A stretch of 64,000 nt of DNA from Escherichia coli (lineage in GTDB: Bacteria; Pseudomonadota; Gammaproteobacteria; Enterobacterales; Enterobacteriaceae), in NCBI RefSeq assembly GCF_046105845.1, contig NZ_CP151004.1, one strand, 5' to 3'. Under the pieces are notes generated by a model. That model worked only from the letters and a program-made list of their open reading frames with translations. It did no database searches and had not been told where the DNA came from. The position numbers were made by a program, and so were the translations under genes. Shown piece by piece: positions 1,119-49,236 of this stretch. Positions within the stretch are counted from its first letter, which is position 1. Each line of letters opens with the position of its first letter.

Positions 1119-2261
1119 ATGACAAATAAACACCCATCATTGTTTTCTCCTTTTATGCTGACAGAAAAAATAAAGCTACGTAATCGTATCGTTATGGCTC
1201 CTATGACGACCTGGTCAGCGAATCCTGATGGAACCATCTCTGAGCAAGAACTCGAATTTTATAAACGCCGCTCACAAAATGTTGGTTTAGTAATAACAGG
1301 ATGCACCTATGTCACGCCAAGCGGCATTGGGTTTACTCATGAATTTGCCGCGTATGACGACCGTTTCATTAACAGCCTTGAAAAGTTAGCAGCTGCAGCC
1401 AAAAGTGGCGGTGCTCCGGCTATTTTGCAGATTTTCCACGCCGGTAATAAAGCCATCCCGGAGCTTGTGCCAAATAACGATGTTATTAGTGCCAGCGCAT
1501 CAAGCGTAAAATCTGGTGATTTTATGAAGAGAGTGGTACAAAGCAGGGAAATGACTGAAAACGAAATTCAGGAAACCATTAGAGCATTCGGAGATGTCAC
1601 AAAAAGGGCGATTAAAGCAGGTTTTGATGGCGTTGAACTTCATGGTGCGCACGGATTCCTTCTGCAGAATTTCTTCTCCCCTCTATTTAACCAGCGTAAT
1701 GACCGATGGGGAGGAGATCTTGAAGGACGTATGCGCTTCCCGCTGGCCGTATTACAGGAAGTAAAAAATGTAGTCTATGAATATGCGACAAAGCCCTTTG
1801 CTATCGGTTACAGAATATCTCCTGAAGAATCTGTAACAGGGGGGCTGCGGATAGAGGATACTTATAAACTCCTTGATCGACTCATTTCATCCGGTATTTC
1901 GTATATACATACCTCGCTGGTCAGTATTAACGATAGCTACCCTGTTGAGTCGCCAAATGGCCCCCGAACTATTGAATTGATTTTAAATCATATTGCAGGC
2001 AGAGTGCCGGTAATCGCTGCAGGTAAAATACGCACACCGTCTCAGGCTCAAGAAGCAATTTCCGCTGGCCTGCCACTTGTTGCGATCGGTAAAGGGCTGG
2101 TGATAAATCCAGAATGGGTGACTTTAGCTGAATCAGGTAGAGGCCATGAAATTCAAACAACCCTTAATCCACAACTTGTTCCTGAATTAACCATTCCGGA
2201 TAAACTATGGGATCAAATTCAGGCATCGAAAGGAACTGGCTGGTTTCCGTTAATGGATTAA
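1119..2261 (+). CDS. NADH:flavin oxidoreductase, Old Yellow Enzyme-like TIM-barrel family
   Basis: 380-aa ORF with OYE-like motifs (RIVMAPMTT near N-terminus, HGAHGFLLQNFFSP, RNDRWGG). Family call from motif recognition only. Confidence 0.75.
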   Translation: MTNKHPSLFSPFMLTEKIKLRNRIVMAPMTTWSANPDGTISEQELEFYKRRSQNVGLVITGCTYVTPSGIGFTHEFAAYDDRFINSLEKLAAAAKSGGAPAILQIFHAGNKAIPELVPNNDVISASASSVKSGDFMKRVVQSREMTENEIQETIRAFGDVTKRAIKAGFDGVELHGAHGFLLQNFFSPLFNQRNDRWGGDLEGRMRFPLAVLQEVKNVVYEYATKPFAIGYRISPEESVTGGLRIEDTYKLLDRLISSGISYIHTSLVSINDSYPVESPNGPRTIELILNHIAGRVPVIAAGKIRTPSQAQEAISAGLPLVAIGKGLVINPEWVTLAESGRGHEIQTTLNPQLVPELTIPDKLWDQIQASKGTGWFPLMD

Positions 2262-2733
2262 ATATCTATTACTCTCCCGAGAGTAAAACTATCAAATCAA
2301 TGAGTAACCGATACAGCCTCACAAATTCTTTCAGATAATTAACCCGTCACTGCGGCACGTTCTCTCGTAAGGCGTGCCTGCAGTGTAATCCAGTATGTAT
2401 CTGGCATAGTTGACGGTTTAATAGAACTCAATTCCTCTCCCAGGTCACCAACAACGATATCTTGTATAACACCCCAGGAGATACGACATTATGATGAGAT
2501 GAGGTATGCTCCTCAGCGCCAATCAACGCCAGGGCTGGGCCAGTTTTGAGATCAGACTCATTCCCGGACTGACTTCAGGCGACATATATCAATGACGTTG
2601 GGGCAATAAAAGATAGCCGATGTAATACATCTATTCAAATTTGTGATACATGTCAAAAAATTGGTTGACCAAACTCGTTATTTATATAAGGGCACTTACG
2701 AAGTGCACTCTTTTTTAAAGCGAGGAAGTACCA

Positions 2734-2835
2734 ATGAAAGAGAATAAAGTACAGCAAATCAGTCATAAACTGATTAATATCGTTGTTTTTATCGCAATTG
2801 TAGAATACGCCTATTTATTTCTCCATTTCTATTAA
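2734..2835 (+). CDS. ykgR: small hydrophobic protein YkgR (33 aa)
   Basis: ATG at 2734 to TAA at 2833-2835 gives MKENKVQQISHKLINIVVFIAIVEYAYLFLHFY, below the ORF-track length cutoff. Matches my recollection of K-12 YkgR and sits next to ykgM as in K-12. Confidence 0.6.
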   Translation: MKENKVQQISHKLINIVVFIAIVEYAYLFLHFY

Positions 2836-3157
2836 TAACGGCAGTAAACTGTTCACTTCAGTGATATTTAAAATATGCATCCTCTCCCTTTTTGTAAGTA
2901 ATTATTATATCCGTGGGAGAGGAATACACGCTGTCAGGTAATCAATCATACTGCGATAAATCATCGGCCAGTAAAGTGGAGATAACCTCCATTCTCGAAA
3001 AAGCGAAACTATCATCAATCACTCATCCAGGCGTTTATGGGAGCGTCGCCAACGGCTGCTAACAATGCCAGACTTCCCCGTTGGGGAAATTCCACATACC
3101 ACAAATAGTCACAGGGATTGGGTGTTGAAATGATCCGGATGAGCATGTATCTTTATG

Positions 3158-3175
3158 GTTATGTTATAACATAAC
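3158..3175. promoter_or_regulatory. Zur box (palindrome GTTATGTTATAACATAAC) upstream of ykgM
   Basis: Perfect AT-rich palindrome about 10 bp upstream of the ykgM start; ykgM-ykgO is a known Zur-repressed operon. Confidence 0.7.
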
Positions 3176-3186
3176 AGGTAAAAATG

Positions 3187-3450
3187 ATGAAACCCAATAT
3201 CCATCCTGAGTATCGTACTGTGGTGTTCCATGACACCAGTGTTGATGAGTACTTTAAAATCGGCTCGACTATCAAAACAGACCGTGAGATTGAGCTGGAT
3301 GGCGTAACGTATCCGTACGTGACAATTGATGTCTCTTCGAAATCGCACCCGTTCTATACAGGGAAGCTGAGAACAGTAGCATCAGAAGGAAATGTTGCAC
3401 GGTTCACCCAACGTTTTGGTCGTTTTGTTAGCACGAAAAAGGGGGCGTGA
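3187..3450 (+). CDS. ykgM: 50S ribosomal protein L31 type B (zinc-independent paralog)
   Basis: Translation [62 protein letters not shown]... is an L31 sequence lacking the Zn-ribbon cysteines. Second ATG (3187) chosen; the ORF track starts at 3184. Confidence 0.9.
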
Positions 3451-3590
3451 TGAAAGTCCTTAACTCTCTGCGTACCGCAAAAGAACGCCATCCAGACTGT
3501 CAGATTGTGAAGCGAAAAGGACGGCTATATGTGATTTGTAAATCTAATCCACGTTTTAAGGCCGTTCAGGGTCGTAAGAAAAAACGTTGA
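3450..3590 (+). CDS. ykgO: 50S ribosomal protein L36 type B paralog
   Basis: 46-aa [49 protein letters not shown] whose ATG overlaps the ykgM stop (GTGATG); not in the ORF track. Confidence 0.85.
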
Positions 3591-3996
3591 TTCAAAATTC
3601 GACGGATTAATGATATTTGTCTGATTAATAATCAGACCTGATTAATGTTGGTGTATTTATTACACCAGCATTAATTTTCTTGGGGATGTATCTTCCTGTT
3701 CATTTAAGGTCAACTGCCTGACGTTTCTCTCCGAATATTCCATTATATTAATGTTGACTTGTTAACCAGGTGCGCCCTGTATGCTGGCATCAACTCTCTT
3801 TTAGACTGAACACGCCACTCAGTTTCCTCCCTTTGCGACGCAGCCTGCATTTACACTCAAACGGTTAAGATGATAAATGTGGTAAATCTGTTGGTACTGA
3901 CATAAAAACGTTTACGTCACAGGAACGGCCTGATCCACCGGTAACCCCATCGCCGACGTTCGAGTGCCAGTTAGAGTAACGCGCACAGATGACTGA

Positions 3997-4221
3997 ATGC
4001 AGTGCCCTGGCAAAGAGGCCATCGTTCCTGTGACAACTGGCAGTCTTCGTTTAACTTCACTTAATTTGGCTCTTAGGGGGCTTACCGGACAGATGACGTA
4101 CTTACACCTGTTTAATTTTTCATCACTTATTGGGATGAACACCCATAACCATTTTGTGCGGCATGTTAATCCATTAAAACACCTTACTGATTGGCAAATC
4201 ATCTTTAATTATGACTCATGA
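3997..4221 (+). CDS. small hypothetical protein (occupies the position of K-12 ykgL)
   Basis: 74-aa ORF between ykgO and ecpR, called by position and size only. An antisense ORF overlaps it; weak call. Confidence 0.25.
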   Translation: MQCPGKEAIVPVTTGSLRLTSLNLALRGLTGQMTYLHLFNFSSLIGMNTHNHFVRHVNPLKHLTDWQIIFNYDS

Positions 4222-4604
4222 TAGTTTTATATTCTATTTCTTATCATTTAAACTTGTTTTTTTACTAGTCCATCACACAACACATTAAGACTATTCCTAA
4301 CACCTCAGGGCAAAGTTCCTGGCTAATATAAAATGCAAGTAAGAATTGAACGTTATATTGCCAATAACCTTATGAAACTGAATGTCTTTTTCTTCTTATC
4401 AAAAAAGCAATATTTTCATTTTTTGTAAATATTGACTTAACCATGGAATTCCTTTTCTGTTCACATATTGACACTCATCAGGAAAAAAACATAAATTTAA
4501 ACCTAATCGAAATAATTAAAACTTAATCTCGTTTAACCTATATTGATATGTGCTACGTATCTTATTTACTTCCGATTTACTAAAGAAACTGAATGTACCT
4601 GTAA

Positions 4605-21836: not shown

Positions 21837-22058
21837 ACGTTAATAACGACCGACTCTTCACTGTGCAACATTGTGTCAGGTAGTCCCTCTGCGTTCAATT
21901 CCAGGGTCTGCTTTGAGCGAGAAAGAGGGGACTATCCAGCAATGGAGATCACCCAAAAGAAAAAACCACCTGGCTCCCTCGACAACCTTCATCCAGGCAT
22001 TTAGCCTCAATCAACATTTTTATATCTGTCAGGTTACTTCATGATGAAAACTGATCAT

Positions 22059-22305
22059 TATCGTTGTTTTTGTTGCAATAGTAGAATACGCGTATTTATT
22101 CCTCCATCTCTATTAATAACGGCAATAAACTGTTCACTTCACTGATATTTAAAATATGTATCCTTTTCAAGCTGTTCAGCGGCGTAAGAAAAAGTATTAA
22201 TTATGAATTCGACGATTTAACCATATCTGTCTGATTGGTAATCATCCGTGATTAATGTTGGTCTATTGATTACGCCAGCATTAACCGCTTAGGGATGTAT
22301 TCTTC
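22059..22305. repeat. degenerate second copy of the ykgR/ykgO flanks with ykgM and most of ykgO missing
   Basis: 22059..22153 aligns by eye with 2775..2873 (ykgR 3' half and downstream) and 22156..22305 with 3558..3705 (ykgO 3' end and downstream), with scattered substitutions; the ~680 bp carrying ykgM/ykgO is absent between the two blocks. Confidence 0.7.
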
Positions 22306-22607
22306 CTGTTGATATCCCCCCCTCGAAAAAGAGAGAAAATAAAACTGTGTCCAATATTACTCTACCACTCCAGACCGAAGCATCGGTGGGATTAGCAGGA
22401 CGACTGGTACAGAAGGATGGTATAGCGTCATTTGTCGGGCATTCCATTGCCATAATAATGACAATTTTGAATCAATAGACATGCTTCTTGATCATGTCTT
22501 AAAAATTAGACCATGAGCCTTACGAAGCATCATTTTTACTGACTGGTATTAACTTTGCTATCATATAAACTCTGTTCTTAAAAACGCGCCCAGAATTTAT
22601 ATGATTT

Positions 22608-34765: not shown

Positions 34766-34801
34766 ATTTCAGGGTTTGAGAAATGCGTAAAGATTCAGCA
34801 T

Positions 34802-35500
34802 CTAGCGCGTTCGCTGCGAATGCACCTGCTGCTTATCCAGCTTTTGCACCAGCGGCTGCACCACTTTATCCCCATGCTGACCAAAGTATTGATACAGCGT
34901 ATCGGACGCACTTTTGGTCAGCACCATAATCTCAATGCGTCGGTTGCCCGCGCTTTGCGGATTTTTCGCGTCCAGCAGCATCTGGTCCGCCATCGCGCTC
35001 ACCTGCATCACTTTATCTTCCGGCATTCCGGCCTCTTCCAGCACCCGACGAGCCGAAAGCGCGCGATCGCCCGAAAGGTTCCAGTTGTTGTAGATATTGT
35101 TTTTGTAGGCCATCGCATCGGTATGCCCGGTAATAATAATTTTGTTATCGAGCGAGTCGAACACTGGCGCGAGCTCCACCAGCAAAGTTTTAAAGAACGG
35201 CATAATCTGTGCGCTGCCGCGTTCAAACATATTGCGGTTCTGGTCATCTTTAATCAGCACGCGCAGTCCCTGGGGAACAATCTCCATCTCCAGATTCGCT
35301 TCCATATGTGCATCACGGGCAATGGTGTTGATACTGGTCGCCAGCTCGCCAAGCTCAGTAGCGGATTTCTTCTTCAGCAGCGCCGTTTTCTCATTGACGT
35401 CACGCGCTTTTTTCTCCGTCTCTTCCGGCACCGCCACGGTGGCAGGTTTTGGCGGATGAGACGGGCTGATTTTATTTAACGGCGACAACCCGCCGCCATT
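34802..35500 (-). pseudogene. lafU: lateral-flagellar MotB-like protein remnant (Flag-2 scar)
   Basis: C-terminal OmpA/MotB-like region (...IITGHTDAMAYKNNIYNNWNLSGDRALSARRVLEEAGMPEDKV...NRRIEIMVL...) with no N-terminal TM anchor; the 5' part of the annotated ORF is merely antisense to the lfhA fragment. 5' boundary approximate. Confidence 0.6.
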
Positions 35501-35539
35501 GAAAATCGACTGCCCGTGCAGCGCGGCGATAATGCTTTC

Positions 35540-37271
35540 ACGCTCGGATTTACTGACGCTGTTGACAATCAACTTTATCGTCGTCACCAAAGGGGCCGAG
35601 CGTATTTCCGAGGTTTCTGCCCGCTTTACCTTAGACGCGATGCCCGGTAAACAGATGGCGATTGACGCCGATCTTAACGCTGGGTTGATCAACCAGGCGC
35701 AGGCGCAAACCCGGCGTAAAGATGTTGCCAGCGAGGCCGATTTCTACGGCGCGATGGACGGGGCATCGAAGTTTGTGCGCGGGGACGCCATCGCCGGGAT
35801 GATGATTCTGGCGATCAACCTGATCGGCGGCGTCTGTATCGGCATCTTCAAATACAACCTGAGCGCCGACGCCGCCTTCCAGCAGTATGTGCTGATGACC
35901 ATCGGCGACGGGCTGGTGGCGCAGATCCCGTCCCTGCTGCTCTCCACCGCGGCGGCAATTATCGTCACCCGCGTCAGCGACAATGGCGATATCGCCCATG
36001 ACGTGCGCCACCAGCTGCTGGCAAGCCCGTCGGTGCTCTACACCGCCACCGGGATCATGTTTGTGCTGGCGGTGGTGCCGGGGATGCCGCATCTGCCATT
36101 TTTGCTGTTCAGCGCCCTGCTGGGTTTTACCGGCTGGCGGATGAGCAAACGCCCGCAGGCGGCGGAGGCGGAGGAGAAAAGCCTCGAAACGCTGACCCGC
36201 ACCATCACCGAAACCAGCGAGCAACAGGTCAGTTGGGAGACTATTCCGCTGATCGAACCCATCAGTTTAAGCCTCGGTTACAAACTGGTGGCGCTGGTCG
36301 ATAAAGCGCAGGGTAACCCACTCACCCAGCGTATTCGCGGCGTGCGGCAAGTGATATCCGACGGCAACGGCGTGCTGCTGCCGGAGATCCGTATTCGGGA
36401 AAACTTCCGCCTCAAGCCCAACCAGTACGCCATATTCATCAACGGCATTAAGGCCGATGAAGCGGATATTCCGGCGGATAAACTGATGGCCCTGCCCTCC
36501 AGCGAAACCTACGGCGAGATTGACGGCGTGCTGGGGAACGACCCGGCGTACGGGATGCCGGTCACCTGGATTCAGCCTGCGCAGAAAGCGAAGGCGCTGA
36601 ATATGGGGTATCAGGTGATCGACAGCGCCAGCGTGATTGCCACCCATGTGAACAAGATTGTCCGCAGCTATATTCCTGATTTGTTTAACTATGACGATAT
36701 TACTCAGCTGCATAACCGTTTGTCGTCGATGGCACCGCGACTGGCGGAAGATTTGAGCGCGGCGCTCAATTACAGCCAGTTGCTGAAAGTGTACCGGGCG
36801 CTACTGACTGAAGGCGTTTCCCTACGCGATATCGTCACCATCGCCACCGTGCTGGTCGCCAGTAGCACAGTGACCAAAGATCATATTCTGCTGGCAGCTG
36901 ATGTGCGCCTGGCGCTACGGCGCAGCATTACCCATCCGCTCGTTCGCAAGCAGGAGCTGACGGTGTATACGCTGAATAATGAGCTGGAAAATCTGCTGAC
37001 CAACGTGGTGAATCAGGCGCAACAGGCCGGCAAAGTGATGCTCGACAGCGTGCCGGTGGACCCGAATATGCTTAACCAGTTCCAGAGTACGATGCCACAG
37101 GTGAAGGAGCAGATGAAAGCGGCGGGGAAAGACCCGGTGCTGCTGGTGCCGCCGCAACTGCGTCCATTGCTGGCGCGCTATGCAAGGTTGTTTGCGCCGG
37201 GGCTGCATGTGCTGTCGTATAACGAAGTGCCGGATGAGCTGGAGTTGAAGATTATGGGGGCGCTGAGTTGA
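35540..37271 (+). pseudogene. lfhA: FlhA-family export-gate protein, N-terminally truncated (Flag-2 scar)
   Basis: Reading frame carries FlhA motifs (VVTKGAERISEVSARFTLDAMPGKQMAIDADLNAG) but starts inside the membrane domain with no proper N-terminus or RBS; overlaps the lafU remnant. 5' boundary approximate. Confidence 0.65.
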
Positions 37272-37307
37272 TGCCTTTTAAGAAACACAATACGATGACA
37301 TCAATTT

Positions 37308-37703
37308 ATGACGTCAGGGATTGATAAGATGATGAAAACGCGTTTATTAATATCTCAAGCATCGAACATTATCACCATTAAAGGTCAACCAGCCGCAGTG
37401 ACATTTGAAGCCGATATCAACGCATTTCGCGGCAAATTTCTCAATGTAAATGGTTATTGCGACTTTGTAGCGACAAGCATTGAGGCGTTATACCGGGAAG
37501 GTGAAAGTGCGCTGGATGAGTGGATGGCGGATTGTGAAGAGGACGGCATTGCCCCTTTTCGTGAAGAAGAGCAAAAACGCCTGACGCTTCGTGTTCCTCA
37601 TCACATCGATTCACGACTGACCATTGTCGCCAGACAACATTCCATTTCAAAAAATCAGCTCATTGTTGATGTATTAGAACGTGAGTTTTCATCCCAGATG
37701 TAA
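37308..37703 (+). CDS. HicB-like antitoxin-fold protein with C-terminal ribbon-helix-helix
   Basis: 131 aa; the C-terminus (KRLTLRVPHHIDSRLTIVARQHSISKNQLIVDVLEREF) looks like a CopG/Arc-type RHH; the N-terminal half resembles the HicB fold only loosely. Followed by a clear terminator. Confidence 0.45.
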   Translation: MTSGIDKMMKTRLLISQASNIITIKGQPAAVTFEADINAFRGKFLNVNGYCDFVATSIEALYREGESALDEWMADCEEDGIAPFREEEQKRLTLRVPHHIDSRLTIVARQHSISKNQLIVDVLEREFSSQM

Positions 37704-37708
37704 ACAGG

Positions 37709-37737
37709 TCGGATGCCGTGTGGCATCCGATTTTTTT
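37709..37737 (+). terminator. rho-independent terminator
   Basis: TCGGATGCC-GTGT-GGCATCCGA followed by TTTTTTT, 6 bp after the stop of the 131-aa gene. Confidence 0.6.
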
Positions 37738-37759
37738 CCTGATCGTCAGTATTCTCCGT

Positions 37760-38518
37760 TTACAAAATCGTCTCTTCCGTCAAAATCCTGCGCGCGCCTA
37801 AAAAATGATCCTGCCAGAAAGGCTCAGCTAACCGACTTACCCGAATGGTTTCCCCCGTGCGCGGCGACTCGATAAACTGACCGTCTCCCAGATACACGCC
37901 CATATGATCGGCTATCTCGCGGCTGTGGATATGGAAAAACAGCAAATCTCCCCGGCGCAGGTCGTTGTTCGCCACAATCGTTGCCCGATGGTAGTGATAC
38001 ATCTCATTAGCCGTACGCGGGAGCTTCGCCTCGAGGATCTTGTTGTAGGCATAAAAAACCAACCCGCTACAGTCGAAGCCTTGATCAGGCCGCGTGCCGC
38101 CCCAGACGTAAGGTTTGCCAAGCTGCTGCTCCAGGCGGTGAATCGCCACTTCGGTGATGTTGTGTAGATGGTCGCTGCTTAAGAAATGGTTGTTCTCCGC
38201 CAGCGCCTGCCAGCGTCTGTCACTCGCCTTGAGCGGCGCAGGAAACCATTCTGGATGCTGTTTTATCTGTTCGCGGTTGTGCTGGCGCAGCGCCTTTCTG
38301 CTTTCGGCATTGCCTTCCACAATGTAGCTGGCCTGCTTTTTCAGATGGGTTTGGTACTGTTTTAATAAACGCGCCCGGTTTTGCATCCGCTGGCGGGCGG
38401 CGTAGCTGAAAGAGATATGTGATGTGGTGGCGCTGGCGAGTAAAGGGAGCAAAACGCATAACGAAAACACGCCTGGATGCAGAAATCTGCCGTGAAAGAA
38501 CGAAGACATGAAGGACAT
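37760..38518 (-). CDS. yafL: NlpC/P60 (C40) family peptidase lipoprotein
   Basis: C-terminal NlpC/P60 signature (FDCSGLVFYAY ... HMGVYLG); N-terminal signal/lipoprotein-like region; start may be the second Met. Confidence 0.85.
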   Translation of the reverse strand: MSFMSSFFHGRFLHPGVFSLCVLLPLLASATTSHISFSYAARQRMQNRARLLKQYQTHLKKQASYIVEGNAESRKALRQHNREQIKQHPEWFPAPLKASDRRWQALAENNHFLSSDHLHNITEVAIHRLEQQLGKPYVWGGTRPDQGFDCSGLVFYAYNKILEAKLPRTANEMYHYHRATIVANNDLRRGDLLFFHIHSREIADHMGVYLGDGQFIESPRTGETIRVSRLAEPFWQDHFLGARRILTEETIL

Positions 38519-38809
38519 AAACTAGCTGAATGAAGGAGAGAATTTTAAAAGGTTGGGGGAGTAAACGGGATTATTAATTGCTTATTTGCATATTAGTTAC
38601 GAGGTTTCATAATCTTAGGAAATAAGTGATACATGCGCTTTTCGGACTAATGAAAACTGCCCCTGTGCTAAATTTGTAAACCCTGCGCCGACAGGCTTGC
38701 GTAAAACTCTTTTGGTGATAATGTGAGCCTTCCAAATCCAGACTATTCCGATTTGGGATCCATTTTGCCGTCCTGGCGTGTGTAACCGTTTTATCAAGGA
38801 ATAAGCAGT

Positions 38810-39550
38810 ATGCGTAAAATCGCATTAATTCTTGCGATGTTGTTGATCCCGTGCGTTTCGTTTGCCGGTTTGCTGGGCAGCAGTAGCTCAACCACGCCAG
38901 TGAGCAAAGAGTATAAGCAGCAGTTGATGGGATCCCCTGTCTACATCCAGATCTTCAAGGAAGAACGTACGCTCGATCTCTACGTCAAAATGGGCGAGCA
39001 ATATCAGCTGCTCGACAGTTATAAAATCTGTAAATATTCCGGCGGCTTAGGGCCAAAACAGCGTCAGGGCGATTTCAAAAGCCCGGAAGGGTTTTATAGC
39101 GTCCAGCGTAATCAGTTAAAACCAGACAGCCGTTACTACAAAGCAATTAATATTGGATTCCCCAATGCCTATGACCGTGCGCATGGTTATGAAGGGAAAT
39201 ACCTGATGATCCACGGCGATTGTGTTTCCATCGGCTGCTACGCGATGACCAATCAGGGTATTGATGAGATCTTCCAGTTCGTTACTGGTGCGCTGGTGTT
39301 TGGTCAGCCGAGCGTGCAAGTGAGTATTTACCCGTTCCGCATGACCGACGCCAATATGAAGCGCCATAAGTATTCCAACTTTAAGGACTTCTGGGAGCAA
39401 CTGAAACCGGGCTACGACTACTTTGAGCAAACCCGTAAGCCACCGACCGTTTCTGTGGTCAATGGCCGTTACGTGGTCAGCAAGCCGTTAAGCCACGAAG
39501 TTGTGCAACCACAGCTGGCATCAAACTACACGCTCCCCGAGGCAAAATAA
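38810..39550 (+). CDS. yafK: L,D-transpeptidase-fold periplasmic protein YafK
   Basis: 246 aa; signal peptide [19 protein letters not shown]; YkuD-like catalytic region ([14 protein letters not shown]). Confidence 0.85.
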
Positions 39551-40288
39551 GCGCCATTCGCCTGGCATAATCTTTTGCCAGGTTTCATTGCCCGTCAGCG
39601 GCTGTGTCGCAATCACCGTGACCACATCATTCGGTGTGGTCTGCGAGCTGAAGTCGATTTCCACATCCTGATCCAGCAACGTTGCCACGCCAAACGGCGC
39701 GCGGCGGGTGATCCAGTGTAAATTAGTCGAGCAATACGCCATTACATAGCGCCCGTCAGAAAGCAGCATGTTGAAAACGCCCTTCTGCCGCAGTTCATCC
39801 GCCAGTGAGGCGATATATTTAAACACTGCCGCCATGTTGCCCGGTGTGCGCGGGTAACGCTGCGTTAATTTATGCAGGAGCCAGCAGAAGGCTTTTTCGC
39901 TGTCGGTTTCACCGACCGGGCGGAAGTTGCCGGTTTCCAGTGATTTATAGCCCGTCAGTTGCCCATTATGGGCATAAGTCCAGTTACGCCCCCATAACTC
40001 GCGGGTAAACGGGTGAGTATTTTCCAGCGCCACCTCGCCCCGATTCGCCTGGCGAATATGAGCCACCACCGAACAGGATTTTATCGGGTAGTCCTGGACA
40101 AGTTTGGCGATGGGAGAATTAAAGCTGGGTTGCGGATCTTTAAATGTGCGACAGCCTTTACCTTCGTAAAAGGTAATGCCCCAGCCATCTTTATGTGGCC
40201 CGGTTCCACCACCACGCTGTACAAGCCCGGTGAAACTAAAGCAGATATCGGTAGGGACGTTGGCGCTCATCCCGAGCAATTCGCACAT
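39521..40288 (-). CDS. yafJ: class II glutamine amidotransferase
   Basis: Start at MCELLGMS... (Cys2 nucleophile typical of class II amidotransferases), 255 aa. Confidence 0.85.
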
Positions 40289-40403
40289 GGGTAACCTCCA
40301 CAACAGCGGGAGCGCATGGCCCCCGGCGAAGATTGATTAAAAAGTACAAAGGTTCAGGCTGTTACCCTCACCCCGGCCCTCTCCCTGAAAGGGAGAAAAG
40401 ACC

Positions 40404-40982
40404 TTACTTAACCATCTCTTTTTCAATCAACTGGATCAGGATATGGATCACTTTAATGTGAATCTCCTGAATGCGGTCGGCATAACCAAAGTGCGGTACG
40501 CGAATTTCGATATCCGCTGTGCCAGCCATTTTACCGCCGTCTTTACCGGTCAGGGTGATCACTTTCATCCCCTTCTCACGCGCCGCCGCGATCGCTTTGA
40601 TCACGTTTGCAGAGTTACCGGAGGTGGAGATCCCCAGCAGTACATCGCCTTCGCGACCTACCGCTTCAACGTAACGGGAGAAAATATCATTGAAACCAAA
40701 ATCGTTACCGACGCAGGAAATATGACTAACGTCAGAAATGGCAATCGCCGGATAGCCCGGACGGTTTTCACGGTAGCGACCGGTCAACTCTTCGGCAAAG
40801 TGCATGGCGTCGCAATGGGAGCCGCCGTTGCCGCAGGAAAGCACTTTACCACCGGCTTTAAAGCTGTCTGCTAACAGGACCGCCGCGCGCTGAATGGCGT
40901 GAATATTGGCGTCATCTTTTAAAAAGTTAGCCAGCGTTTCCGCCGCTTCGTTCAGTTCATTACGAATAAGATCCTGGTACAT
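40404..40982 (-). CDS. gmhA: D-sedoheptulose 7-phosphate isomerase
   Basis: 192 aa from [20 protein letters not shown]...; SIS-domain motifs. Confidence 0.9.
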
Positions 40983-41221
40983 GAGGATATCCTTCAGCAT
41001 AAATGTAATAGACAAAATGCAGTGTACCGGATACCGCCAAAAGCGAGAAGTACGGGCAGGTGCTATGACCAAGACTTTTTGACCTGAAGTGCGGATAAAA
41101 ACAGCAACAATGTGAGCTTTGTTGTAATTATATTGTAAACGTATTGCTAAATGTTTTTACATCCACTACAACCATATCATCACAAGTGGTCAGACCTCCT
41201 ACAAGTAAGGGGCTTTTCGTT

Positions 41222-43666
41222 ATGATGATTTTGAGTATTCTCGCTACGGTTGTCCTGCTCGGCGCGTTGTTCTATCACCGCGTGAGCTTATTTATCAGCA
41301 GTCTGATTTTGCTCGCCTGGACAGCCGCCCTCGGCGTTGCTGGTCTGTGGTCGGCGTGGGTACTGGTGCCTCTGGCCATTATCCTCGTGCCATTTAACTT
41401 TGCGCCTATGCGTAAGTCGATGATTTCCGCGCCGGTATTTCGCGGTTTCCGTAAGGTAATGCCGCCGATGTCGCGCACTGAGAAAGAAGCGATTGATGCG
41501 GGCACCACCTGGTGGGAGGGCGACTTGTTCCAGGGCAAGCCGGACTGGAAAAAGCTGCATAACTATCCGCAGCCGCGCCTGACCGCAGAAGAGCAAGCGT
41601 TTCTCGACGGCCCGGTAGAAGAAGCCTGCCGGATGGCGAATGATTTCCAGATTACTCATGAGATGGCTGATTTGCCGCCGGAGTTGTGGGCGTACCTTAA
41701 AGAGCATCGTTTCTTCGCGATGATCATCAAAAAAGAGTACGGCGGGCTGGAGTTCTCGGCTTATGCCCAATCTCGTGTGCTGCAAAAACTCTCCGGCGTG
41801 AGCGGGATCCTGGCAATTACCGTCGGCGTGCCGAACTCATTAGGCCCGGGCGAGCTACTGCAACATTACGGCACTGATGAGCAGAAAGATCACTATCTGC
41901 CACGTCTGGCGCGTGGTCAGGAGATCCCTTGCTTTGCACTGACCAGCCCGGAAGCGGGTTCCGATGCGGGCGCGATTCCGGACACCGGGATTGTCTGCAT
42001 GGGCGAATGGCAGGGCCAGCAGGTGCTGGGGATGCGTCTGACCTGGAACAAGCGTTACATTACGCTGGCACCGATTGCGACTGTGCTTGGCCTGGCATTT
42101 AAACTCTCCGACCCGGAAAAACTGCTGGGTGGCGCAGAAGATTTAGGTATTACCTGTGCGCTGATCCCGACTACCACGCCGGGCGTGGAAATTGGTCGTC
42201 GCCACTTCCCGCTGAACGTACCGTTCCAGAACGGACCGACGCGAGGTAAAGATGTGTTCGTGCCGATCGATTACATCATCGGCGGGCCGAAAATGGCCGG
42301 GCAAGGCTGGCGGATGCTGGTGGAGTGCCTCTCGGTAGGCCGCGGCATCACCCTGCCTTCCAACTCAACCGGCGGCGTGAAATCGGTAGCGCTGGCAACG
42401 GGTGCGTATGCGCACATCCGCCGTCAGTTCAAAATCTCTATTGGTAAGATGGAAGGGATTGAAGAGCCGCTGGCGCGTATTGCCGGAAACGCTTATGTAA
42501 TGGATGCTGCGGCATCGCTGATTACCTACGGCATTATGCTCGGTGAAAAACCTGCCGTGCTGTCGGCTATCGTTAAGTATCACTGTACCCACCGTGGGCA
42601 GCAGTCGATTATTGATGCGATGGATATCACTGGTGGCAAAGGCATTATGCTCGGGCAGAGCAACTTCCTGGCCCGTGCTTACCAGGGCGCACCGATTGCC
42701 ATCACCGTTGAAGGGGCTAACATTCTGACCCGCAGCATGATGATCTTCGGACAAGGAGCGATTCGTTGCCATCCGTACGTGCTGGAAGAGATGGAAGCGG
42801 CGAAGAACAATGACGTCAACGCGTTCGATAAACTCCTGTTTAAACATATCGGTCACGTCGGTAGCAACAAAGTTCGCAGCTTCTGGCTGGGCCTGACGCG
42901 CGGTTTAACCAGCAGCACGCCAACCGGCGATGCCACTAAACGCTACTATCAGCACCTGAACCGCCTGAGCGCCAACCTCGCCCTGCTTTCTGATGTCTCG
43001 ATGGCTGTGCTGGGCGGCAGCCTGAAACGTCGTGAGCGTATCTCGGCACGTCTGGGGGATATTTTAAGCCAGCTTTACCTCGCCTCTGCCGTTCTGAAGC
43101 GTTATGACGACGAAGGCCGTAATGAAGCCGACCTGCCGCTGGTGCACTGGGGCGTACAGGATGCGCTGTATCAGGCTGAACAGGCGATGGATGATTTACT
43201 GCAAAACTTCCCGAACCGCGTGGTTGCCGGGCTGCTGAATGTGGTGATCTTCCCGACCGGACGTCATTATCTGGCACCTTCTGACAAGCTGGATCATAAG
43301 GTGGCGAAGATTTTACAAGTGCCGAACGCCACCCGTTCACGTATTGGTCGCGGTCAGTACCTGACGCCGAGCGAGCATAACCCGGTTGGTTTACTGGAAG
43401 AGGCGCTGGTGGATGTGATTGCCGCCGACCCAATTCATCAGCGGATCTGTAAAGAGCTGGGTAAAAACCTGCCGTTTACCCGTCTGGATGAACTGGCGCA
43501 CAACGCGCTGGCGAAGGGGCTGATTGATAAAGATGAAGCCGCTATGCTGGTGAAAGCTGAAGAAAGCCGTCTGCGCAGTATTAACGTTGATGACTTTGAT
43601 CCGGAAGAGCTGGCGACGAAGCCGGTAAAGTTGCCGGAGAAAGTGCGGAAAGTTGAAGCCGCGTAA
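41222..43666 (+). CDS. fadE: acyl-CoA dehydrogenase
   Basis: 814 aa from [18 protein letters not shown]...; N-terminal membrane segment then acyl-CoA dehydrogenase domains. Confidence 0.9.
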
Positions 43667-43673
43667 TTGAATA

Positions 43674-43699
43674 ACGGAGCCGAAAGGCTCCGTTTCTTT
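43674..43699. terminator. terminator hairpin between convergent fadE and ivy
   Basis: ACGGAGCC-GAAA-GGCTCCGT followed by TTCTTTAT. Confidence 0.6.
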
Positions 43700-43708
43700 A
43701 TCCGCTAA

Positions 43709-44182
43709 TTATTTAAAATTAAAGCCATCCGGATGGTTTTCCAGGCTGCCGGTCAACGCCGCGAACAGCACCGTTTTACCATCAATCGAAAGCGCATCGT
43801 TCACATTCAACCAGGTGAGTTTCTCTTGCGACGTTTTCTCATCAATGGTCGAGAACAGCCCCGTCATCTGATTAGATTTCTCGGACCACATCACAGCGAT
43901 ACGTTGCGAGCCACAGTCATGCGGTTTGCACGCGCTCATCACCTGATACGTCTCATCTCCCAATGTCACGGTTTGTGCAGGGGTATAAGTCCCGCCTTTC
44001 ATCACCCAAGCAGGCAGCTTATGCCCTTGCACCATCTGATTAAACGCAGCTTTGGTGGTTTCGCCCTTTGCAAGGCTGCTAATGGTTAAATCATCCTGCG
44101 CCATTGCACTGGTGGCGATGACCAGAGCGGCGACTGTCGTTATTGCCTTAAACATCATTCCTCCCGAGCTTATCCTGCCCAT
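43709..44182 (-). CDS. ivy: inhibitor of vertebrate C-type lysozyme
   Basis: 157 aa, signal peptide, conserved CKPHDC loop. Confidence 0.9.
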   Translation of the reverse strand: MGRISSGGMMFKAITTVAALVIATSAMAQDDLTISSLAKGETTKAAFNQMVQGHKLPAWVMKGGTYTPAQTVTLGDETYQVMSACKPHDCGSQRIAVMWSEKSNQMTGLFSTIDEKTSQEKLTWLNVNDALSIDGKTVLFAALTGSLENHPDGFNFK

Positions 44183-44335
44183 GTTATTAACCTCCTAAAG
44201 CCTGGCGATAACACGATAATTTGCAAATCAGATATTTCCAATATCAGCATTTGTTATCAATTTATTCTGCGCTAAGGCAACTGCCTGATAAGGTGTTAGA
44301 GTTATAAAACCCTTCGCATAAAGGAGTTGTACACC

Positions 44336-45106
44336 GTGCCTGGTTTGAAGATTACGCTTTTACAGCAACCACTGGTGTGGATGGATGGTCCTGCCAACCT
44401 GCGTCATTTTGATCGTCAACTGGAAGGCATTACCGGGCGCGATGTGATCGTTCTACCGGAGATGTTTACCAGCGGCTTTGCCATGGAAGCGGCAGCTGCG
44501 TCGCTAGCACAAGATGACGTAGTGAACTGGATGACAGCCAAAGCGCAGCAGTGCAATGCGCTGATTGCAGGCAGTGTTGCATTACAAACGGAGTCTGGTT
44601 CGGTTAACCGCTTTTTGCTGGTTGAGCCGGGCGGCACGGTACATTTTTATGATAAGCGTCATCTGTTCCGCATGGCAGATGAGCATCTGCATTATAAAGC
44701 GGGCAATGCGCGAGTGATTGTGGAATGGCGCGGCTGGCGTATTTTGCCGCTGGTGTGCTACGACTTACGTTTTCCGGTGTGGTCGCGCAATCTCAACGAT
44801 TACGACCTCGCCCTGTACGTCGCCAACTGGCCTGCTCCGCGCTCTCTGCACTGGCAGGCATTGCTGACGGCCCGCGCGATTGAGAATCAAGCGTATGTGG
44901 CGGGATGCAATCGCGTCGGCAGCGATGGCAACGGCTGCCATTATCGCGGTGACAGCCGGGTGATTAATCCACAGGGCGAGATTATCGCCACCGCCGACGC
45001 GCATCAGGCAACGCGCATTGATGCGGAGCTGTCGATGGTGGCGTTGCGGGAGTATAGAGAAAAGTTTCCGGCATGGCGGGATGCGGATGAGTTTAGGTTG
45101 TGGTGA
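44336..45106 (+). CDS. yafV: omega-amidase (nitrilase-superfamily C-N hydrolase)
   Basis: Start set at GTG giving MPGLKITLLQQ... (256 aa); nitrilase-family E-K-C triad context (VCYDLRFP). Confidence 0.85.
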   Translation: MPGLKITLLQQPLVWMDGPANLRHFDRQLEGITGRDVIVLPEMFTSGFAMEAAAASLAQDDVVNWMTAKAQQCNALIAGSVALQTESGSVNRFLLVEPGGTVHFYDKRHLFRMADEHLHYKAGNARVIVEWRGWRILPLVCYDLRFPVWSRNLNDYDLALYVANWPAPRSLHWQALLTARAIENQAYVAGCNRVGSDGNGCHYRGDSRVINPQGEIIATADAHQATRIDAELSMVALREYREKFPAWRDADEFRLW

Positions 45107-45219
45107 GTGGGTGTTGTGTTTAGGGCCGGGGAGAGTCGGGGTATGACTACGAAAGCCCCTAACTTAAACACGATATTACGCCAGAAGTCACCATTTCCAA
45201 AACACAACGCCGTTGTACC

Positions 45220-45390
45220 GTGGGATATCTGCCCAACAGCAGCGACACGCCGGTGATCAAAATCAGCGCCAAATGGCTGAGAGAAGCGGGATTTGAGATC
45301 GGCACGGGCGTTACCGTGAAGATCCCGGAAGGTTGCCTGATCCTGCTTGCGGATAACAACGAAGTACAGGAACTGAGGAAGGAACTTTAT
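45220..45390 (+). pseudogene. SymE-like (AbrB-fold type I toxin family) gene fragment
   Basis: From a GTG start, ...TPVIKISAKWLREAGFEIGTGVTVKIPEGCLILLA... closely resembles the SymE core (KGQWLEAAGF.TGT.V.VKV.EGCIVL). The frame then continues for ~100 codons antisense to the convergent MucR-like gene, which I regard as non-coding read-through. 3' boundary approximate. Confidence 0.4.
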
Positions 45391-45758
45391 AAGGTTAAAC
45401 AGGCTGTCTTCAATATAGAACCGGAGCGATTACGCCAGTCAGGATCTGACTTTAGTTGCCTTCTCTTTATTCTCATCATGGCTATTTGTTCTGCGGGATC
45501 AAGCTTTCCCTTTGCTATTCTCGCCTTCATATATTCAATTTGTTTCTCCAGATATGAAATCCCTGCCAGTGCGATGTGCTTCGGTATGTTCCATTTTTCA
45601 CGATATTCGTCAGCGCGTATTCCATGCACAAACCAGATATGGCGCGGTAAAAAAATGAGCAACTTGCCACACTCCAGACAGGGTATTTTTTCCCGCTTAT
45701 GATATGCCAGAACCTCTTCACGCGTTTCGAATGGCCTGTTCCTCTCTTTTTTGTACAC
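45387..45758 (-). CDS. Ros/MucR-family zinc-finger transcriptional regulator
   Basis: 123 aa with the Ros/MucR signature IPCLECGKLLIFLPRHIWFVHGIRADEYREKWNIP (C-x2-C ... H-x4-H followed by EYREKW.LP). Confidence 0.7.
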   Translation of the reverse strand: MYKKERNRPFETREEVLAYHKREKIPCLECGKLLIFLPRHIWFVHGIRADEYREKWNIPKHIALAGISYLEKQIEYMKARIAKGKLDPAEQIAMMRIKRRQLKSDPDWRNRSGSILKTACLTL

Positions 45759-45822
45759 AAAGACTCCTTTTAAAAAATGGCAAGGTCACATATCCCTTAT
45801 TGGTACATAAATCCCCCGACGT

Positions 45823-47199
45823 TTACTGACTTTGTTCCACCTTCGTATCCAGTAAAATTACATAGCGATTCAGCAACTGATTTAACCGGGTATCTATCTG
45901 CGTCAACAGCGTCGGCGAAACCTCTCCGGTCTGTTTTTGCTCTTCCAGTTGCCGAAGCAGTTCTTCCAGCGGCGGCTCCTTTAACGACTGCCGGATGCCG
46001 TACACCGCCGTTTTTAGTTCCGAGCCGGTCAGATATCTCCCCTTACGCTCATCCAGTGCATCCAGCTGCGCCGACAGGCGCTGTAGCTGGCTTTGCGCCT
46101 GTGCGTAGCCATTCAATGCCTCAGCAGACATGGCGCTCAGCTCCCGCTGCTTACGCCACTGCGCGTTCAGCGCCCTGACCTGAGGATTATCCGGCCACAG
46201 GGCATCAAGCTGGCGTAGCTGGCGATATCCCTGCTCCAGCGGCCAGCGGGCAGGCAATTTGTTTAACTGCTCCAGCTGCATCTGACTTGCCGCAATTGTT
46301 CTGTCCTGAGCCAGCAGCGCCTTATCCTTTACATCCAGCTTTGCCAGTTCGCCGCTCTCCAGCGACTGCGGCAACGGCATGACAGACAGTTGTATTCGCT
46401 GGATTAGCGCGTCCGGCTGATTAAGCTGCGACCAGCCCCATAATCCTGTTCCGCCGAGACAGGCCATCACAACCATTCCGGCCATAAATATCGGCCATGC
46501 CCGCTGCCGGGAGATTTCAGGGGATGGCACGGATGGACTGGCATCCTTATCGTTTTGCTGAGCGGGTCTGGTTGCAAAAACCGGCTGTGGACTTTCTTCT
46601 GACTTTTTCGGTTGCTTCATTTCCTTGCGGGGTAATTCAGGGGGAGTGATAGTGGTTTCCGCTCCCTGTGGTGCCAGCCGCTCCAGACGTAGCGCCGCAT
46701 TACGAAACTGCCCGGCCAGCACATCCAGTTTCGTCATATGCCACAGTTCACACTGTTGCAGCGTGGTTTCGATGGCGGAAAGATGCTGTACACAACGGTA
46801 AATCTGCGGCAGATCCTGATACTGAATATCCAGCGTTCTCAGTGCCTGCTGCATTTTTTCTGTGACCCAGCTGAGCAGTGATATTCTGGAATGTACCTGT
46901 ACCGGCCAGAAGTCGGCCCATCGCTGGAGCAGTATGTCCAGTGAACCGAGTCCGTCTGCCATCCCTGCCAGCCCCTGCCGTCTGGTTATCGCCAGTACGT
47001 AACAGACCAGCGTCTGTAATTCCACGCCATTTTGCCGGAACAGCGCGAGGCTGAGTTTTTCCACCTGACGCCAGTCCACATCCGGTCGGGCCGGGTGAGT
47101 CAGTTTACTCATTTCAGCCTGCAGTTCACCGGATTCCTTATAAGTACAGGGATCGCCGCCCATGACGAACTGGCTGATAAAATTCGCGTTACTTGCCAT
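45823..47199 (-). CDS. TssA-family (ImpA_N domain) membrane-anchored T6SS accessory protein, TagA/VasL-like
   Basis: 458 aa; N-terminal ImpA_N-like region (GGDPCTYKESGELQAEMSKL...), one central TM helix (AWPIFMAGMVVMACLGGTGLWGW), Q/L-rich coiled-coil C-terminus; last gene of the T6SS block. Confidence 0.6.
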   Translation of the reverse strand: MASNANFISQFVMGGDPCTYKESGELQAEMSKLTHPARPDVDWRQVEKLSLALFRQNGVELQTLVCYVLAITRRQGLAGMADGLGSLDILLQRWADFWPVQVHSRISLLSWVTEKMQQALRTLDIQYQDLPQIYRCVQHLSAIETTLQQCELWHMTKLDVLAGQFRNAALRLERLAPQGAETTITPPELPRKEMKQPKKSEESPQPVFATRPAQQNDKDASPSVPSPEISRQRAWPIFMAGMVVMACLGGTGLWGWSQLNQPDALIQRIQLSVMPLPQSLESGELAKLDVKDKALLAQDRTIAASQMQLEQLNKLPARWPLEQGYRQLRQLDALWPDNPQVRALNAQWRKQRELSAMSAEALNGYAQAQSQLQRLSAQLDALDERKGRYLTGSELKTAVYGIRQSLKEPPLEELLRQLEEQKQTGEVSPTLLTQIDTRLNQLLNRYVILLDTKVEQSQ

Positions 47200-47627
47200 C
47201 AGTACGCCCGCTCCTGCTGTTTGAGATGACGCAGAACAATTCGTCCTTCCGGAGAAAATACGCCATCAAAGCGTATCCAGCCGGTATCGGGAAGCTGCGC
47301 GTGGATCAGGTAATTAAGATGCCCCGGACGGGGCTGGGGGAGTAACTCCACCTGTATCTGACTCAGGCGTGGTTCATAACGCAGCAGCGTTTCTTCAATC
47401 TGACGCATCAGGCCATGAATACCCGCAGCCATCCCCTGATGGATCAGACTGAGATCCGGCAGACCGTAATCCGGCAAATGCGCCAGCGTGCCTGCCCGAC
47501 AGTTGATAATGCGTTGCATATTGTCCATCACGGAAAGGATAAGCTGATCCCGCTCGCTGACCTGTTCCAGTGGTAACTCGCCGCTGAAACTGAACGTCAG
47601 CATTTCATATAAGGAAGGTGTCGACAT
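47199..47627 (-). CDS. tssE: T6SS baseplate protein TssE (gp25-like)
   Basis: 142 aa, size and position between tssJ and the TagA-like gene with a 1-nt overlap; family call by context. Confidence 0.7.
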   Translation of the reverse strand: MSTPSLYEMLTFSFSGELPLEQVSERDQLILSVMDNMQRIINCRAGTLAHLPDYGLPDLSLIHQGMAAGIHGLMRQIEETLLRYEPRLSQIQVELLPQPRPGHLNYLIHAQLPDTGWIRFDGVFSPEGRIVLRHLKQQERAY

Positions 47628-47630
47628 CGG

Positions 47631-48167
47631 TTATTTATCCTTGAGAGGCAGCAGTCGCAGGTCGCTTCTCATCAGTTCAATCGAGCGCGGCTTGTCGGCC
47701 TCCAGTTCGTCCCTTTTGATCACCAGACGCCAGCTGTCGCTTTTTTCATCAGGGTGATAAAACTGCCCGATAATGGCGACAAACTGCGTCTCTTTATCCA
47801 GCGGCTCATTCAGGGATGCCGTGCCTTCCGGTTTTACCCAGACGGTGTGTTTTGCCAGTACGTCCTTCTCCAGCGTCTTCTCTTCCTGCATAAACAGGGT
47901 GTCATAATCCGCCTTGTCAAAATCTTCGCGGGTTTTCAGTTGCCAGACATGCACCATCGTGGAAAGCGGCGTATCTTCCGCATCCGTATTCAGGGCACTT
48001 CGGGAGAAGAAATCGAGATGCAGTATTTTGATTTGCTTGTAGAAAACGGCTGAGGCCACGCTTTTCGATTCATCCACCACTTTCTGAATCAGCCCGCAGC
48101 CACTCAGAACAACCGTCAGCATCGCCATACAGAGCAGCGCCGGACGTTTAAAACGAATAGGAAACAT
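47631..48167 (-). CDS. tssJ: T6SS outer-membrane lipoprotein TssJ
   Basis: 178 aa; lipoprotein signal with lipobox LSGC (MFPIRFKRPALLCMAMLTVVLSGC). Confidence 0.7.
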   Translation of the reverse strand: MFPIRFKRPALLCMAMLTVVLSGCGLIQKVVDESKSVASAVFYKQIKILHLDFFSRSALNTDAEDTPLSTMVHVWQLKTREDFDKADYDTLFMQEEKTLEKDVLAKHTVWVKPEGTASLNEPLDKETQFVAIIGQFYHPDEKSDSWRLVIKRDELEADKPRSIELMRSDLRLLPLKDK

Positions 48168-49236
48168 GAGTCATACACTCCCTGTTACGAATGGATAAAG
48201 CGGGTATTAATCCCTGATAACGCCCCAGACTGACCGTCACTGTTCCGGTCGCGGGCGCGGCAAAGGAGGCGCGAAGGATGCCGGTACGGCTAATCTGTAC
48301 GCGCTGTTTTCCCAGCCGGGCAGCAGGCAACAGGCTGACGGGCAGTGTCAGTTGCAGACGGGCCTGACAGCGCCAGCCCAGATAAACGCGCAGCAGTACC
48401 AGCAAATCGCTGTGCAGCTGTCCGCCAGGCAGCCAGCCACGCGCTTCTGCGGCATCTTCGGTATACAGTTTCAGCAGCAACTGGCTGTTGACGTCGGTGC
48501 CGGTACGCCCCAGCAGCGTTCGCGTTTTCAGGCTGATGCGTGAATTTTTTGACAGACCCGCAGGGGCCGGGAGAATAACAGGCTGCGGATCATGAGGCAC
48601 CACCGTCGCTTTCGTCAGCGGGGCAAGCAGTCCCACCAGTGCCGTAACGCCTTCCGCCGTGCGCGTCGGCAGGCGCATCACGCTGAGCAGGGCCAGAAAA
48701 CGGGATACCGGCGTGGCGATATGGTTCTCGCTGCCGGGAATACCCAGCCCGATGAGTCCCAGCAGACAACGGGAAATGTCATCCACAGCACCTGCTTCAA
48801 ACGACGCCGGGTAGTTATATTTGCGCCAGATGCGGTAATACTGGGTGATAAAGCGGTGGTTAAAAATATCGAGAAACGCCATCACTGCGTCATGTCCGTC
48901 ATGACGCTGGGTAATGTAGTCCAGATAGGCGGTTGGCAGCGGCGAATCCACGCCGTACAGGCCGAAAAAGGTGGTGCGCACCGTGGGTGGTGCGTCGGGA
49001 TTGTCCACGTCACGTTCAACGTTCTTTAACTCGCTGACCGGAAAGCCCATTCCGGGATGGGGACGAAAGCGCACCGCATCGGCGGCGGGGCTGTCGGTAC
49101 TGCCCAGCGGCGCTTTCTGTTGGCTCTGTTCCAGCAACTGGCAAAAACGGTAAAAATTGATCCGCGCAATATCCGGGGCCAGCCGGTCGGTCAGCCCGGT
49201 ACGCGCTGGCTGTGATGCTCTGTCCATTGCAGGCAC
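48148..49236 (-). CDS. tssG: T6SS baseplate protein TssG
   Basis: 362 aa; N-terminal F.F.Q.LE-type motif (INFYRFCQLLEQ); follows tssF with overlap. Confidence 0.75.
   Translation of the reverse strand: MPAMDRASQPARTGLTDRLAPDIARINFYRFCQLLEQSQQKAPLGSTDSPAADAVRFRPHPGMGFPVSELKNVERDVDNPDAPPTVRTTFFGLYGVDSPLPTAYLDYITQRHDGHDAVMAFLDIFNHRFITQYYRIWRKYNYPASFEAGAVDDISRCLLGLIGLGIPGSENHIATPVSRFLALLSVMRLPTRTAEGVTALVGLLAPLTKATVVPHDPQPVILPAPAGLSKNSRISLKTRTLLGRTGTDVNSQLLLKLYTEDAAEARGWLPGGQLHSDLLVLLRVYLGWRCQARLQLTLPVSLLPAARLGKQRVQISRTGILRASFAAPATGTVTVSLGRYQGLIPALSIRNRECMTHVSYSF

Follow-up and report, generated by a model that had tools for sequence, protein, structure and literature searches.

The stretch from 2734 to 3590 of this Escherichia coli DNA raises two questions, namely whether the palindrome that it contains is an operator for the zinc-responsive repressor Zur, and whether all three of its genes belong to one zinc-regulated unit. 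The window, that is, the whole stretch of DNA that was analysed, is 64,000 nucleotides (64 kb) long. The ORF list gives three plus-strand ORFs within or at the edges of 2734-3590 (33 aa, 88 aa and 47 aa). An earlier note read them as ykgR, ykgM and ykgO with a perfect Zur palindrome in front of ykgM, and all three genes, the palindrome and the overlap between ykgM and ykgO do lie where it placed them. The locus is most probably the well-studied ykgMO operon of E. coli, which Zur directly represses; we put the probability of this reading at about 95%. The observation is already known, and the locus is an ordinary one that is explained by published work. The best explanation draws on the gene identities, the loss of cysteines, the match and conservation of the operator and the geometry of the promoter, all of which were computed here. 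Zur binding and zinc-dependent repression are taken from the literature on the near-identical K-12 sequence and would hold for this locus by analogy.

A megablast search with 2400-4000 against 5426 complete E. coli genomes finds the stretch in 5090. The annotation of the matching genomes is everywhere ykgR, ykgM (type B L31) and ykgO (type B L36), and the DNA of strain PCN033 is 100% identical to the locus. K-12 MG1655 carries ykgR, ykgM and ykgO at 312374-313242 on the minus strand, with 97% DNA identity to the window, and shares with it the gene set, the order, the common strand and the 1-nt overlap. The operon genes of K-12 are b0296 (ykgM) and b4506 (ykgO), which are part of the Zur regulon, and ykgR (b4671) lies upstream. 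K-12 is identical to the window across 3124-3192, a segment that holds the promoter, the operator and both ATGs at the start of ykgM. The accessions WP_000803998.1 (YkgM) and WP_000866436.1 (YkgO) are common to PCN033 and K-12 BW25113, while YkgR is one residue apart (I in the window, V in K-12).

The surroundings of the locus differ between the window and K-12. Upstream of ykgR the window has an intact gene (1119-2261, plus strand) for a 380-aa NADH-dependent flavin oxidoreductase of the old yellow enzyme family, whereas in K-12 the last ~30 codons are all that remains, as the pseudogene ykgP, with IS3 and eaeH remnants beyond. Downstream, ykgL (3660-3850, minus strand) converges on ykgO. Unlike its K-12 counterpart, ykgL of the window is a frameshifted pseudogene with two 1-nt deletions relative to K-12.

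The gene ykgM (3187-3450, plus strand) encodes a type B (zinc-free) L31 of 87 aa. The ORF opens at 3184 with ATGATG and has 88 aa when counted from there; the annotated start, which is conserved across species, is the second ATG at 3187, and the TGA stop is at 3448-3450. E. albertii and locus L009, from a second Escherichia genome, have a single ATG only, which aligns with 3187. YkgM scores 122.9 bits against NCBIfam NF002462 (type B L31, cut-off 86) and 87.1 bits against Pfam PF01197 (Ribosomal_L31, cut-off 27). Residues 1-68 are identical to chain D7 of PDB 6i7v, an E. coli ribosome entry; since an identical sequence is a chain of this structure, YkgM of this strain would be built into the ribosome. 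The description of YkgM as an L31 paralog that lacks the Zn-ribbon cysteines is borne out by an alignment with K-12 RpmE, in which YkgM has S, V, S and S at the positions of C16, C18, C37 and C40, carries a 12-residue insertion and contains zero cysteines anywhere. A YkgM scan of 100,044 species genomes gave 80 loci, which belong to Enterobacterales, Vibrio and Pseudoalteromonas. In these other species, 78 of the 80 YkgM homologs are also without cysteine and two have a single one.

The gene ykgO (3450-3590, plus strand) encodes a type B L36 of 46 aa. YkgO scores 91 bits against NCBIfam NF002021 (type B L36, cut-off 70) and 68.6 bits against Pfam PF00444 (Ribosomal_L36, cut-off 26.1), and its residues 1-45 are identical to chain C5 of PDB 6i7v. 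The identification of the two proteins as L31 and L36 paralogs is thus upheld by the NCBIfam type B models, both above cut-off, by the identity to PDB 6i7v and by the RefSeq annotation. Compared with RpmJ, YkgO keeps C14 and C27 (as C17 and C30), while C11 is replaced by H14 and H33 by F36. YkgO, which is called zinc-free, still has Cys at two of the four L36 ligand positions and His at one more; its C-C-C-H zinc ligand set appears to be lost in part only. The earlier note spoke of cysteine loss for YkgM alone.

A 47-aa ORF (3447-3590) that opens with GTGATG includes ykgO, and a start at the GTG at 3447 would make the overlap with ykgM 4 nt. The ATG at 3450-3452 shares its A with the TGA at 3448-3450 (junction GCG TGA TGA AAG), so the start of ykgO overlaps the stop of ykgM by 1 nt, in agreement with what had been claimed. 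The sequence AAGGGGG lies 4 nt upstream of the ykgO ATG (7 nt when counted from the GG of its AGG). A ykgO homolog follows ykgM in 80 of the 80 species loci. The exact overlap is not conserved among them; a gap of 2-12 nt is often found instead, and in one locus the two genes are about 200 nt apart.

The operon probably ends at a hairpin on the plus strand, which was found as an inverted repeat with 15-bp arms (3641-3655 and 3661-3675) followed by TTTTCTT (3641-3682 in all). The RNA of 3588-3690 folds at -31.8 kcal/mol (z = -5.4), and the strict terminator scan gave no report of the 3641-3682 hairpin. We infer the role of the hairpin at 3641-3675 and its TTTTCTT as the operon terminator, which makes this assignment a probable one. 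The hairpin also overlaps the 3' end of the convergent ykgL.

The core of the putative Zur operator is an 18-bp perfect palindrome, GTTATGTTATAACATAAC, at 3158-3175 (no strand), to which a palindrome search, a Zur matrix and conservation all point. It is the longest perfect palindrome in the 64-kb window and sits 11 nt upstream of the ykgM ATG. A symmetric 23-bp Zur matrix was built from the K-12 znuA/znuC, zinT and pliG operators with ykgM left out. With this leave-one-out matrix, 3158-3180 ranks first in the window at 20.5 bits and the overlapping register 3153-3175 ranks second at 18.5 bits, while the best unrelated site reaches 9.7 bits; the top score is reached in 1 of 200 shuffles, so that a match this good is rare by chance. 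The palindrome had been put forward as a Zur box from inspection, and the matrix scan agrees with this assignment. The two 23-bp registers together span 3153-3180 and are 5 bp apart, and they fit the published model of two overlapping dimer sites (PMC4219657). An 18-bp repeat, RxxxYRxxR*YxxYRxxxY, was proposed in the same study from a Zur-DNA crystal structure. The site, written as GTTATGTTA*TAACATAAC and read directly from the sequence, matches all R and Y positions of this repeat. The symmetry of the operator is even (9+9) and not 11-1-11. When the half-sites of this very site are searched in degenerate form, the expected number per window is 0.06, a figure that is not an independent test.

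The palindrome could instead be an AT-rich palindrome that arose by chance, or the site of another regulator (Fur or H-NS). Arbitrary perfect 18-bp palindromes are not rare, since at least one occurs in 6 of 30 mononucleotide shuffles of the window. An RpoD genomic SELEX table flags H-NS in the ykgMO intergenic region (PMC3946193). The site also has 6 mismatches in the 22 specified positions of the classical 23-bp Zur consensus, GAAATGTTATA-N-TATAACATTTC, for which a strict search at up to 3 mismatches finds zero matches in the window; it is still the single best match to this consensus in the window. However, the site tops the scan by a matrix that was built without it, and a search of the whole window for the Fur consensus, with up to 3 mismatches allowed, finds no site. 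All 80 species have the core TGTTATGTTATAACA in the same position, although the flanks are unalignable. Zur binding and 560-fold repression in vivo have moreover been published for the K-12 operator, which is identical to the one in the window; Zur protects ~30 bp at this L31p operator, the most palindromic and the tightest-binding of four Zur operators (PMC4219657). The probability that the palindrome is due to chance or to another regulator is therefore close to nil. The palindrome at 3158-3175 is a predicted Zur operator, and zinc-dependent repression as in K-12 would be expected from it.

A consensus scan places the sigma-70 promoter of ykgMO at 3125-3153 (plus strand), with the -35 hexamer TTGAAA at 3125-3130, a 17-nt spacer and the -10 hexamer TATCTT at 3148-3153. 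The RpoD SELEX table lists the same hexamers and spacing for ykgMO (PMC3946193). Starting 4 nt past the -10 TATCTT, the operator includes the predicted +1. The exact transcription start is a prediction from this promoter, and an operator that covers it would be the classical arrangement for repression by occlusion. The predicted leader is about 26 nt, and AGG lies 8 nt before the ATG at 3187.

The control region is conserved across species. When the whole ~3.2-kb locus is scanned with the Zur matrix, the best hit falls 7-30 bp before the ykgM start in all 80 loci, and the scores of these hits range from 10.7 to 28.4 bits. In an upstream alignment of 25 species, every sequence has the -35 TTG and nearly every one has the A at position 2 of the -10. 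The 25 regions are unalignable except for these two elements and the block TTGTTATGTTATAACAT; the three make up a clean phylogenetic footprint. Among E. coli genomes, 5,057 carry the 71-bp promoter-operator stretch, and in 2,983 of these it is identical; the sampled variants keep the promoter and change at most one base of the right arm. An Rfam search of 2200-4400 at a permissive threshold gave a chance snoRNA match only (E = 0.94), and no known RNA element was found by it in the spacer or the leaders.

These features suggest a mechanism in which, when zinc is present, zinc-loaded Zur would sit on the inverted repeat at 3158-3175. Since the repeat covers the predicted start, RNA polymerase would be blocked. 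When zinc is depleted, Zur would come off the operator and the promoter (TTGAAA-17-TATCTT) would fire, which would give an mRNA with a short leader. This mRNA would be translated into YkgM (L31B, without zinc-binding cysteines), and YkgO (L36B) would presumably be made by translational coupling via the TGATG overlap. YkgM and YkgO would then substitute for the zinc-binding L31 and L36 in ribosomes. The published description of the ykgMO operon includes repression of rpmE by L31p, where L31B acts by way of a hairpin in the rpmE leader to repress its translation (PMC9825181). No feature of the present sequence departs from the published picture or contradicts the explanation.

The gene ykgR (2734-2835, plus strand) encodes a small membrane protein of 33 aa and is found in the ORF list, by NCBIfam NF041474 and in RefSeq. 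YkgR scores 76.8 bits against the equivalog NF041474 (cut-off 40). Its hydropathy in a 19-residue window peaks at 2.0 over residues 13-31, which form a single hydrophobic span. The literature describes YkgR as a small membrane protein of stationary phase, which SRP inserts post-translationally and RseP cleaves. In a tblastn search of the 80 loci, 1.5 kb on each side of ykgM, ykgR adjoins ykgM in two loci, both from Escherichia (L008 and L009, that is, E. albertii and the second Escherichia genome). From this distribution, ykgR appears to be an Escherichia-restricted small membrane protein gene. The earlier note set ykgR beside the ribosomal protein genes, and its range and its mention of a complete module could be taken to place ykgR in the zinc unit. 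The adjacency holds; membership of the zinc module does not, since ykgR is upstream of the operator and accompanies ykgM in 2 of 80 loci only. The gene is a neighbour with its own upstream region, outside the Zur unit. Because ykgR is a neighbour only and lies upstream of the operator, the range 2734-3590 joins two separate units. The module itself extends from the promoter at 3125 to the end of the hairpin at ~3682, with ykgR left out.

One could still regard ykgR, ykgM and ykgO as a single three-gene, zinc-regulated unit, as the genes are adjacent and on the same strand. The terminator scan detects no intrinsic terminator in the spacer between ykgR and ykgM (2836-3186), so some read-through is possible. 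However, the Zur box is downstream of ykgR and therefore cannot occlude a ykgR promoter, and ykgMO has its own promoter, which is both conserved and published. All 80 loci have the Zur box, ykgM and ykgO, but ykgR is within 1.5 kb upstream in two of them. The spacer varies in length and contains indels; it is 351 bp in the window, 363 bp in K-12 and ~465 bp in E. albertii and L009. The accessible literature on YkgR as an SRP and RseP substrate of stationary phase also holds no link to zinc. A three-gene zinc unit is thus very unlikely, and the two-gene ykgMO operon behind its own promoter and operator is the reading that we retain. The absence of a detected terminator between ykgR and ykgM is likewise the basis for a different idea, that a stationary-phase ykgR promoter may read through the 351-bp spacer into ykgMO, which we consider very unlikely.

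The spacer (2836-3186), within which the operator lies, has further features. The part at 2836-3124 (plus strand) folds better than shuffles (z = -2.8) and includes a GC-rich stem of 8 bp, CCTCTCCC/GGGAGAGG, which closes a loop of 26 nt (2882-2923). Compared with the window, K-12 has a few substitutions and a 12-bp indel in the spacer, with the 12 extra bp at ~3005. E. albertii and L009 have ~110 extra bp right after the stem, a block without counterpart in E. coli. A conserved RNA in the spacer was considered and rejected in view of the indels within E. coli and the ~110-bp block of E. albertii and L009. A suppressor mutation of a ydgH deletion has been reported between ykgM and ykgR (PMC11705850). 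Conversion from BW25113 coordinates places it 199 bp upstream of the ykgM ATG, at ~2999, which is outside the promoter and the Zur box.

Four Escherichia sequences hardly differ in the region upstream of ykgR (2640-2733, plus strand). Within this region is a CRP-like sequence, TGTGA-N6-TCAAA, at 2642-2657; this is the only such match in the window, where 1.66 are expected by chance, and the putative site is a lead only. A terminator-like hairpin, GCACTTACGAAGTGC, with a T-run (2692-2716) stands right before the Shine-Dalgarno sequence of ykgR and shows one compensatory change, A-T to G-C, in E. albertii. The stability of this leader hairpin (2692-2706) is no better than that of shuffles (z = -0.6). 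It may serve to terminate transcription that comes from upstream, or may be an element of the leader.

At 22048-22310 (plus strand) the window also has a second copy of the locus, which is decayed and carries an internal deletion. The 5' part of the relic consists of the last 22 codons of ykgR (12-33) and 48 bp downstream and is 91% identical to 2767-2883. The 3' part directly abuts it and consists of the last dozen codons of ykgO and the hairpin region, with 79% identity to 3554-3700. From this direct junction, the equivalent of 2884-3553 has been deleted, which comprises the spacer, the promoter, the Zur box, ykgM and most of ykgO. RefSeq annotates the relic only as 'YkgR, incomplete' and leaves the ykgO remnant unannotated. 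Among 5,426 E. coli genomes, 612 cover at least 80% of the relic, and the three genomes examined all show the same truncation. The relic resembles the E. coli copy more than the copies of other Escherichia; it is flanked by a LysR gene and by island remnants next to tRNA-Thr. Another feature of the window, by the annotation of PCN033, is a lateral flagellar (Flag-2) cluster at ~34800-50000 (minus strand), which runs from flgG to flgL and includes lafA, fliD, fliS, motA and lafU. Its coordinates are approximate, as they come from those of PCN033, which are offset by ~11 bp at 22 kb. The Flag-2 cluster is largely deleted in K-12.

Comparable zinc-responsive systems exist in other bacteria. In Bacillus subtilis, Zur represses the C-minus paralogs ytiA/rpmEB (L31) and yhzA (S14). 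Compared by description, the likeness is that Zur represses a cysteine-free paralog which replaces a zinc-ribbon protein when zinc is scarce, whereas the operator and the gene set are different and an L36 paralog is missing. The mycobacterial altRP operon, also under Zur, encodes C-minus S14, S18, L28 and L33. By description again, it resembles ykgMO in its zinc-responsive switch to zinc-free ribosomal protein paralogs but differs in the ribosomal proteins concerned and in having at least four genes. The operator type of B. subtilis, the 9-1-9 Zur box, is mentioned in PMC4219657, and a study on altRP of Mycobacterium smegmatis is cited in PMC9825181.

The operon, its operator, the structure of the repressor, ribosome structures with both paralogs and the downstream L31 switch have all been published already. 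The value of the present analysis is one of quality control: the first reading from the raw sequence was accurate and withstood both of the refuting checks that it had named, and the limits of the module are now well defined. If read-through from ykgR into ykgMO were true, it would provide a second input to L31B and L36B, which Zur either would not affect or would limit as a roadblock. The published rise of L31B and L36B in stationary-phase ribosomes could then be explained, and the Escherichia-specific ykgR would then be a functional add-on to the conserved module.
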